A stretch of DNA of 13,699 nt from a virus (Duplodnaviria > Heunggongvirae > Uroviricota > Caudoviricetes). Numbering within the stretch: position 1 is the first letter of the stretch; every line of letters starts with the position of its first letter. The notes below the pieces were generated by a model. That model did not search any database and was not told where the DNA came from. It worked only from the letters and a program-made list of their open reading frames with translations. The position numbers were made by a program, and so were the translations under genes. Location of the stretch: the IMG/VR virus record IMGVR_UViG_2537561934_000011, one strand, 5' to 3'. Below are positions 5,665 to 6,534 of this stretch, one piece after another.

Positions 5665-5719
5665 GGTAATGCTGCCAACTTACTGATTTAGTGTATGATG
5701 GTGATTTTAAGGTGCTTGC

Positions 5720-5995
5720 GTGGCTTCCATTTCCATCAGATGTCCTTCCTGCTCCGCTACTGAAGGCGTGGTGCGTAACGGCAAAAGCACTGCCGGGCAT
5801 CAGCGCTATCTCTGCTCTCATTGCCGTAAAACATGGCAACTACAGTTCACTTACACCGCCTCTCAGCCCGGTACGCACCAGAAAATCATTGATATGGCCA
5901 TGAATGGCGTCGGATGTCGCGCCAGTGCACGCATTATGGGCGTTGGCCTCAACACGGTTTTACGTCACTTAAAAAACTCAGGCCGCAGTCGGTAA
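5720..5995 (+). CDS. insA: IS1 InsA (GTG start), 91 aa
   Basis: [43 protein letters not shown].. is the IS1 InsA zinc-finger/HTH protein; differs at about 5 residues from the canonical copy 2. Confidence 0.85.
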
Positions 5996-6417
5996 CCTCG
6001 CGCATACAACCGGGCAGTGATGTGATTGTCTGCGCTGAAATGGACGAACAGTGGGGCTACGTCGGTGCTAAATCACGTCAGCGCTGGCTGTTTTACGCGT
6101 ATGACAGGATACGGAGGACGGTTGTGGCGCACGTCTTCGGTGAACGCACTCTGGCCACACTGGAGTGTCTTCTGAGCCTGCTGTCGGCCTTTGAGGTCGT
6201 GGTATGGATGACGGATGGCTGGCCGCTGTATGAATCCCGCCTGAAGGGAAAGCTGCACGTTATCAGCAAGCGTTACACTCAGCGCATTGAGCGACATAAC
6301 CTGAATCTGAGACAACATCTGGCAAGGCTGGGACGGAAGTCACTGTCGTTCTCAAAATCGGTGGAGCTGCATGACAAGGTCATCGGGCATTATCTGAACA
6401 TAAAACACTATCAGTAA
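5914..6417 (+). CDS. insB: IS1 InsB reading frame (expressed as InsAB' transposase by -1 frameshift)
   Basis: ..[43 protein letters not shown], the IS1 transposase catalytic frame. Confidence 0.8.
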
Positions 6418-6534
6418 GTTGGAGTCATTACCAACAATTCTATCTAGCTCATTAGTACTCAAAGTCAGATTGGTAGCAATAAAAAAACAAGATATGTGAT
6501 GACATGGCGCGGGGCTCAGAACCACTCGTGTATT

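Follow-up and report, generated by a model that had tools for sequence, protein, structure and literature searches.

Adjacent deletions generated by IS1 are known from the classical cases next to gal and lac. Such deletions and recombination between two copies of an insertion sequence are the standard causes of missing target duplications, and cases of adjacent deletion by IS150 come from the long-term evolution experiment (PMC11708052). For IS1, replicative transposition is reported as the main pathway, and the IS1F copy of Escherichia coli K-12 is reported to transpose very poorly (PMC12428005). A prophage known at the chromosomal site considered here is the cryptic prophage e14 of E. coli K-12, which is flanked by icd on the left and, on the right, by an icd' remnant followed by iraM, ymgK, ymgL and ycgX. 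Element e14 comprises int/xis, a truncated O, a pin gene, the type IV restriction gene mcrA and icd', and it has itself undergone a deletion that fused O' to a terminase remnant (ymfN = oweE' + aaaE').

The DNA analyzed here (the window) is a stretch of 13,699 nucleotides from the IMG/VR virus record IMGVR_UViG_2537561934_000011, which carries two IS1 elements, designated copy 1 and copy 2. The analysis centered on copy 1 and on the prophage sequences that it joins.

The window carries a lambdoid prophage remnant at icd

The window contains the remnant of a lambdoid prophage that had integrated at icd, where e14 also resides. A lambda-type tyrosine integrase with Arm-binding and catalytic domains is encoded at positions 1-1143 on the minus strand, with icd lying just upstream of it in locus L001, and the far attachment site is marked by a duplicated icd 3' end (positions 12010-12226, 95% identity), this icd' remnant being followed on the right side of the prophage by iraM and ycgX. 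Copy 2 aside, the window differs from the locus in NZ_CP042934.2 by one mismatch in the first 8,880 bp and by none after copy 2. An intact 43-kb lambdoid prophage, integrated likewise at icd and encoding integrase, excisionase, exonuclease and DndB-like proteins that share their accessions with those of the remnant, is present in FREC5 (NZ_CP180702.1) and provided the undeleted reference for the comparisons below.

The layout of the remnant is like that of e14, with int/xis, a truncated O, a pin gene, a restriction gene and icd' in corresponding places, but an AAA-ATPase and McrC pair takes the place of mcrA, and the deletion in O of e14 involves no insertion sequence. Identity with e14 was rejected, as DNA similarity is found only in pin (75%) and in the chromosomal flank, which makes the window prophage a different phage. 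Cultured lambdoid phages (Escherichia phage 4A7, Lambda_4C10, 1W, 3W and Perceval) share ~98% identity with the left arm of the remnant, from int to bet' (positions 1-4343); these are complete phages of 47-50 kb, whereas in the window all but the two ends of such a genome are missing. The early-left region also encodes a 354-aa DndB/DGQHR-domain protein (positions 2168-3232, minus strand), with no other dnd genes nearby, and this gene may be a phage-borne defence or anti-defence gene.

The replication gene O retains 574 of 1020 nt, its stop codon (TAA) is supplied by the first bases of IS1, and its match to the complete O genes of FREC5 and TD225-C4 stops exactly at position 5664. Five palindromic iterons lie inside the truncated gene, and copy 1 starts 21 bp past the last of them (Table 1). 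By analogy with lambda ori, we infer that the iterons belong to the prophage replication origin and that the left breakpoint falls on the AT-rich side of this origin, inside O. The iterons have been retained but are now separated from the AT-rich region and from P. A second deletion junction, a bet'-cro' fusion, is located further left and is defined by the alignment of window positions 1-4343 to FREC5rc 5153-9495 and of window positions 4342-5664 to FREC5rc 12813-14135. Relative to FREC5, this deletion, which is the earlier event, has removed the 5' part of bet, gam, kil, the cI-like repressor gene and the 5' part of cro, and the remnant is therefore devoid of a repressor gene.

Table 1. Features of the prophage remnant and of its two IS1 copies (positions in the window).
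Feature	Position	Strand	Basis or remark
Second deletion junction, without IS, bet'-cro' fusion	4342..4343	.	~3.3 kb lost; 2-bp microhomology (TA)
Truncated replication gene O, 192-aa ORF	5091..5669	+	Pfam Phage_rep_O, residues 51-145
Five 17-bp palindromic iterons, TTACCYRAAWSRGGTAA	5532..5643	+	5 matches versus 0 expected (200 shuffles)
Left-flanking 9 bp of copy 1, AACTAACAA	5656..5664	.	Not duplicated on the right
IS1 copy 1, IS1F-type isoform, 768 bp, apparently intact	5665..6432	+	Comparison with K-12 IS1F and IS1A
Left terminal inverted repeat of copy 1	5665..5687	+	23 nt, 87% complementary to 6410-6432
insA, 91 aa, GTG start	5720..5995	+	Pfam Zn_ribbon_InsA and HTH_Tnp_IS1
Open insB frame, DDE transposase domain	5914..6417	+	Pfam DDE_Tnp_IS1, E = 8e-74
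A6C programmed -1 frameshift motif, AAAAAAC	5971..5977	+	IS position 307
Right terminal inverted repeat of copy 1	6410..6432	+	Inverted-repeat partner of 5665-5687
Right-flanking 9 bp of copy 1, AACAATTCT	6433..6441	.	Same 9 bp duplicated by an independent IS1 in ETEC1720
pin-like serine recombinase pseudogene	6662..7108 (about)	+	RefSeq annotation of identical locus, offset 2401
AAA-ATPase (McrB-like) gene of McrBC-like module, split by copy 2	7459..10191	+	Pfam AAA_5 on N-terminal fragment
IS1 copy 2, IS1A type, simple insertion	8881..9648	-	10/768 differences from IS1A; perfect 9-bp duplication
mcrC-like gene	10236..11309	+	Pfam McrBC; RefSeq annotation

Copy 1 is an intact element of the IS1F type

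Copy 1 is an intact IS1 with exact coordinates (Table 1), as judged from its length of ~768 bp, its imperfect terminal repeats of ~23 bp (GGTRATG...CAYTACC) and its insA/insB organization with an A6C motif. The insA and insB frames are both open, with insB overlapping insA in the -1 frame, the frameshift motif occupies the same IS position in copy 1, copy 2, K-12 IS1A and K-12 IS1F, and the matches to the three Pfam domains of the element are all far above cut-offs. Aligned end to end and without gaps to the annotated K-12 elements, copy 1 differs at 9 of 768 positions (98.8% identity) from K-12 IS1F, the 'type IV' IS1 at NC_000913.3 4518472-4519239, which is also 768 bp long and has the same terminal repeats, and at 68 positions from IS1A. 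Near identity to K-12 IS1F together with ~9% divergence from IS1A places copy 1 in the IS1F isoform. The distance of K-12 IS1F to IS1A is similar, the 73 differences counted here being the same number as the mismatches reported previously (PMC12428005).

Alignment to the same references assigns copy 2 to the IS1A type, with 71 differences from K-12 IS1F. An ungapped comparison of the two copies gives 66 differing positions out of 768 (91.4% identity), which bears out the preliminary description of the window, where the copies had been estimated by eye to differ at roughly one base in ten and in about five InsA residues; the InsA differences number exactly five (I4V, R7S, E15D, S69T and V80I), and a further 15 residues differ in the InsB frame. 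The contention that the two copies were acquired independently also holds, as they belong to different isoform lineages. The InsA of copy 1 differs at five residues from IS1A as well, and at two from K-12 IS1F. Since elements identical in sequence to copy 1 (100%) occur at unrelated sites in many E. coli genomes, copy 1 represents a commonly occurring isoform and is no mosaic confined to the prophage locus.

The K-12 IS1F element has an internal stop codon in insB (L012 1722-2225) and two further substitutions in InsA, whereas the insB frame of copy 1 contains no stop and its InsA is conserved. Because of these differences, copy 1 may be an active form of the IS1F isoform, and the isoform may be active in natural isolates though nearly inert in K-12. 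The existence of an intact IS1F-type copy is mildly useful, given the defective state of the K-12 reference copy.

Copy 1 lacks a target duplication and almost certainly marks a 34,345-bp deletion

No 8-9-bp direct repeat is present at the ends of copy 1, as had been noted in the preliminary description: the 9 bp abutting the element read AACTAACAA on the left and AACAATTCT on the right. The duplication test itself works, since the same script recovers perfect 9-bp duplications in three control IS1 copies, namely copy 2 (ATTGAAGAG at positions 8872-8880 and 9649-9657) and the elements of ETEC1720 and VTB97584v. The only direct repeat abutting both ends of copy 1 is the 5-bp sequence AACAA (positions 5660-5664 and 6433-6437), which is expected by chance with a probability of 0.0012 if the whole prophage is considered and of 0.0035 if only AT-rich sites are. 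As an IS1 duplication this repeat was rejected because it is too short, and it is all that re-drawn (shifted) boundaries yield. In our view it arose by chance or mirrors the target preference of IS1; it may also represent microhomology.

The repeat AACAA is likewise the only indication of a simple insertion with a decayed duplication or misdrawn boundaries, a reading that is extremely improbable. The boundaries of copy 1 agree to the base with those of K-12 IS1A and IS1F, and its two flanks, which match FREC5 with 99.4-100% identity as far as the edges of the element, are separated by 34,345 bp in that relative instead of being contiguous; this comparison refutes a simple insertion. An 8-9-bp repeat after re-examination of the boundaries, together with contiguous flanks in relatives, had been named beforehand as the observation that would speak against a deletion; neither was found.

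Both breakpoints fall exactly at the IS1 termini, and homology to FREC5 ends there. On the left, identity to FREC5 is 100% over window positions 1-4343 and 99.85% over positions 4342-5664. On the right, the sequence from position 6433 onward matches with 99.4% identity over the 526 bp contained in that FREC5 locus, and in a second FREC5 locus the match, at 99.8%, continues as far as copy 2 and past it, to the end of the window. Breakpoints that coincide with IS termini, and intervening DNA that is present in an otherwise near-identical relative, are the marks of an IS-associated deletion junction, and copy 1 almost certainly marks a 34,345-bp deletion generated by IS1.

Comparison with the undeleted prophage, which the preliminary description had called for, delimits the loss. 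The missing block consists of the last 446 nt (3' part) of O and 41 annotated features, among which are P, the nin region, rusA, Q, a porin gene, the lysis genes, iss, and the terminase, head, tail, tail fibre and acyltransferase genes. The earlier statement that all late and structural genes are gone is therefore accurate, as all of them lie between the two flanks in FREC5. The earlier account of the flanks is correct in placing a truncated O on the left and a pin remnant on the right, but the right breakpoint does not lie in pin. It falls within a spacer of AT-rich intergenic DNA and precedes the lost acyltransferase gene by 38 bp, and the pin-like pseudogene (~85% identity to pinE) starts only 229 bp to the right of IS1. 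The same pseudogene, equally truncated, frameshifted and stop-containing according to its annotation, is found in the undeleted prophage of FREC5 and in TD225-C4, with no IS1 there; the decay of pin is consequently a separate, earlier event that was not caused by IS1.

As the C-terminal part of O, P, Q and the lysis, head and tail genes have been lost, and the origin has been split from its AT-rich region, the remnant is unable to replicate, lyse the cell or make particles. What has been retained is int/xis, the DndB-like gene, exo and a YdaT-domain gene on the left and a McrBC-like restriction module on the right. The deletion explains why, in one group of E. coli genomes, only ~12 kb of the icd prophage is left, and it offers a clean, base-resolved example of an IS1 copy without target duplication. 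IS1-linked prophage deletion as such is already known and is ordinary textbook decay, and the locus is present and annotated in many public genomes.

The breakpoints resemble IS1 targets

IS1 prefers AT-rich targets. The 50-bp windows centered on the breakpoints have a GC content of 28% and 24%, which ranks them among the lowest 3.4% and the lowest 1.6%, respectively, of 50-bp windows of the intact prophage. At the right-hand site, an independent IS1 in ETEC1720 (L007 6159-6926) has perfectly duplicated AACAATTCT, the very 9 bp adjoining the right end of copy 1. This element belongs to another isoform, with 36 bases differing from copy 1, and is inserted in the opposite orientation; the AACAATTCT site thus appears to be an IS1 hot spot. 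Close to the left-hand site, duplication-less IS1 junctions occur in the ori part of O in ET245, Res13-Lact-EB12-05 and PSS-11 (L008, L009 and L010), at 17, 13 and 116 bp, respectively, from the breakpoint of the window. These junctions belong to other lambdoid prophages at other attachment sites, which suggests that lambdoid origins are a recurrent IS1 target.

Given the AT-richness of both breakpoints, the ETEC1720 duplication of the same 9 bp and the nearby IS1 junctions in O, the junctions of copy 1 look chosen by transposase and do not look like random breaks. This bears on a transposase-independent deletion, in which slippage or illegitimate recombination would have used microhomology beside a resident IS1. 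An element resident in O would have TTACC-AAC across its right end and right-hand duplication, against TTACA-AAC at the distant site (7/8 matches); the BLAST alignment of the right flank runs 5 bp into the IS1 end; the AACAA repeat flanks copy 1 at the low chance probability given above (~0.001-0.0035); and the other deletion of the window, at 4342/4343, uses a 2-bp microhomology. These matches are short and imperfect, however, and the breakpoint is, to the base, the left edge of the 9-bp duplication in ETEC1720, as expected if it was chosen by transposase and otherwise a coincidence. Deletion through microhomology is accordingly very unlikely.

The AT-rich unwinding region of the lambdoid ori and the AT-rich spacers by accessory genes may be recurrent IS1 hot spots. 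If so, IS1 would repeatedly and convergently disable such prophages while sparing the defence genes at their ends. The record of independent IS1 events at the same 9 bp, and of others within ~20 bp of the same point of the ori, is mildly useful.

Adjacent deletion is the favored origin of the junction

The preliminary description had interpreted the locus as the footprint of an IS1-mediated adjacent deletion or of recombination between two IS1 copies, and breakpoints at the IS1 ends without a duplication agree with this interpretation. The product is identical under both mechanisms. We lean towards adjacent deletion by intramolecular transposition, with modest confidence. In the most likely course of this mechanism, a single IS1F copy would first have entered by simple insertion at either of two very AT-rich sites, namely the AT-rich part of the ori in O, 21 bp past the last iteron, or, close to the right end of the prophage, the spacer that precedes the acyltransferase gene. 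The InsAB' transposase would then have directed a replicative transposition within the same molecule, with the other AT-rich site as its target. In the deletion outcome, IS1 would become joined to its original flank on one side and to a new 9-bp target on the other, the DNA between them would leave as a circle, and the surviving IS1 copy would hence have no target duplication.

Adjacent deletion is favored because one insertion and one intramolecular event are fewer steps than two insertions followed by recombination, and because replicative transposition is the reported main pathway of IS1 (PMC12428005). Copy 1 shares with known IS-mediated adjacent deletions the single IS that is kept, the missing duplication, the breakpoints at IS termini and the large one-sided loss. 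It differs from them in that the ancestral simple insertion has not been observed, which makes the case indistinguishable from IS-IS recombination. Besides the identical product and the lack of an intermediate in the searches below, two points count against adjacent deletion. Both sites look like hot spots, so that two independent insertions are less improbable than parsimony suggests. The poor transposition of K-12 IS1F (PMC12428005) also weighs against it, but that copy has a stop codon in insB and copy 1 has none.

Intermediates were sought with two queries, one for the O site (the IS1 right end followed by AACTAACAA and the continuation of O, which reads AAGACAATAT after AACTAACAA) and one for the right-hand site (the acyltransferase side, TTTTACA, followed by AACAATTCT and the IS1 left end). 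Both sites were searched in 5,426 complete E. coli genomes and in metagenome contigs, and the O site in species-representative genomes as well. Within this scope, no simple IS1 insertion in the same orientation and with a duplication was found at either site, and no genome had IS1 at both sites, the sole IS1 at the right-hand target being that of ETEC1720, of opposite orientation and different isoform. Several candidate intermediates were rejected: VTB97584v, where IS1 lies 165 bp away with its own duplication; ETEC1720, on account of orientation; and ET245, Res13 and PSS-11, where the IS1 copies reside in other prophages.

These searches also bear on homologous recombination between two direct IS1F copies, the first inserted within the ori of O and the second ahead of the acyltransferase gene, which would have deleted the 34 kb between them and left one hybrid copy, flanked on the left as the first copy was and on the right as the second was. 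This origin is a tentative but serious possibility. It would yield exactly the observed junction, both sites are demonstrably attractive to IS1, and such recombination is a frequent cause of missing duplications (PMC11708052). The genomes with this locus are moreover rich in IS1, with a median of ~11 matching places per genome searched, and ETEC1720 and VTB97584v carry several IS1 copies within the same prophage. It nevertheless requires three events instead of two, and the searches returned neither a genome with IS1 at both sites nor, at either site, an IS1 in the same orientation with a duplication.

A one-step event, in which an IS1F from another place in the genome became linked directly to two AT-rich points lying far apart in the prophage, would have required no earlier insertion at the locus and would never have produced a duplication. 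It would account for the fact that no intermediate is known and for junctions that lie exactly at the IS ends in target-like AT-rich DNA. Such rearrangement-coupled movement in one step has been proposed for IS5 and IS481 (PMC11708052). Missing intermediates are weak evidence, though, since fixation of the deletion concerns a single group of sequenced genomes (~192); one-step movement is not known to occur with IS1, and every case of an IS with a deletion in the long-term evolution experiment data is a two-step adjacent deletion (PMC11708052). We therefore consider a one-step origin improbable and retain adjacent deletion as the preferred reading.

The late genes of this prophage have been lost repeatedly

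Among the 5,426 complete E. coli genomes, the right junction of copy 1 is present in 197, the left junction in 194 and both in 192. The few genomes with just one of the two junctions are probably later rearrangements, since no intermediate intact on one side was found. Related strains have lost the late genes in other ways. TD225-C4 (L004 7511-7512) has a 29.1-kb late-gene deletion with no IS and a 2-bp microhomology, and USMARC-51688 (L002 8233-9000) has a duplication-less IS1A junction at which a terminase remnant is joined to the sequence corresponding to window position 6550; the O'-terminase' fusion of K-12 e14 is a further example. The late genes of this prophage family have thus been lost by at least three independent routes in related strains, and the McrBC-like module at the right end has been kept by all three strains with this same prophage. 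The repeated, independent loss of late genes with the McrBC-like module kept each time is a mildly useful observation.

Copy 2 is a later insertion into the McrBC-like module

Copy 2, whose empty, uninterrupted site is present in the near-identical locus L001, is a later simple insertion than copy 1, since its junction was not found in any of the 5,426 complete E. coli genomes, 192 of which have both junctions of copy 1; the species-representative genomes likewise returned no copy 2 junction. The two copies (positions 5665-9648) have opposite orientations and enclose a 2.4-kb segment with the pin pseudogene and the 5' portion of the AAA-ATPase gene, formally the layout of a composite transposon. 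There is no sign of movement or inversion of the segment, as it is collinear with relatives; inversion between the two inverted IS1 copies was specifically ruled out by the collinearity of positions 6433-8880 with relatives that have no copy 2. The AAA-ATPase gene that copy 2 splits is uninterrupted, with 1956 nt, in loci L001, L003 and L004, and the McrBC-like restriction module has probably been inactivated by copy 2 in the source strain only.
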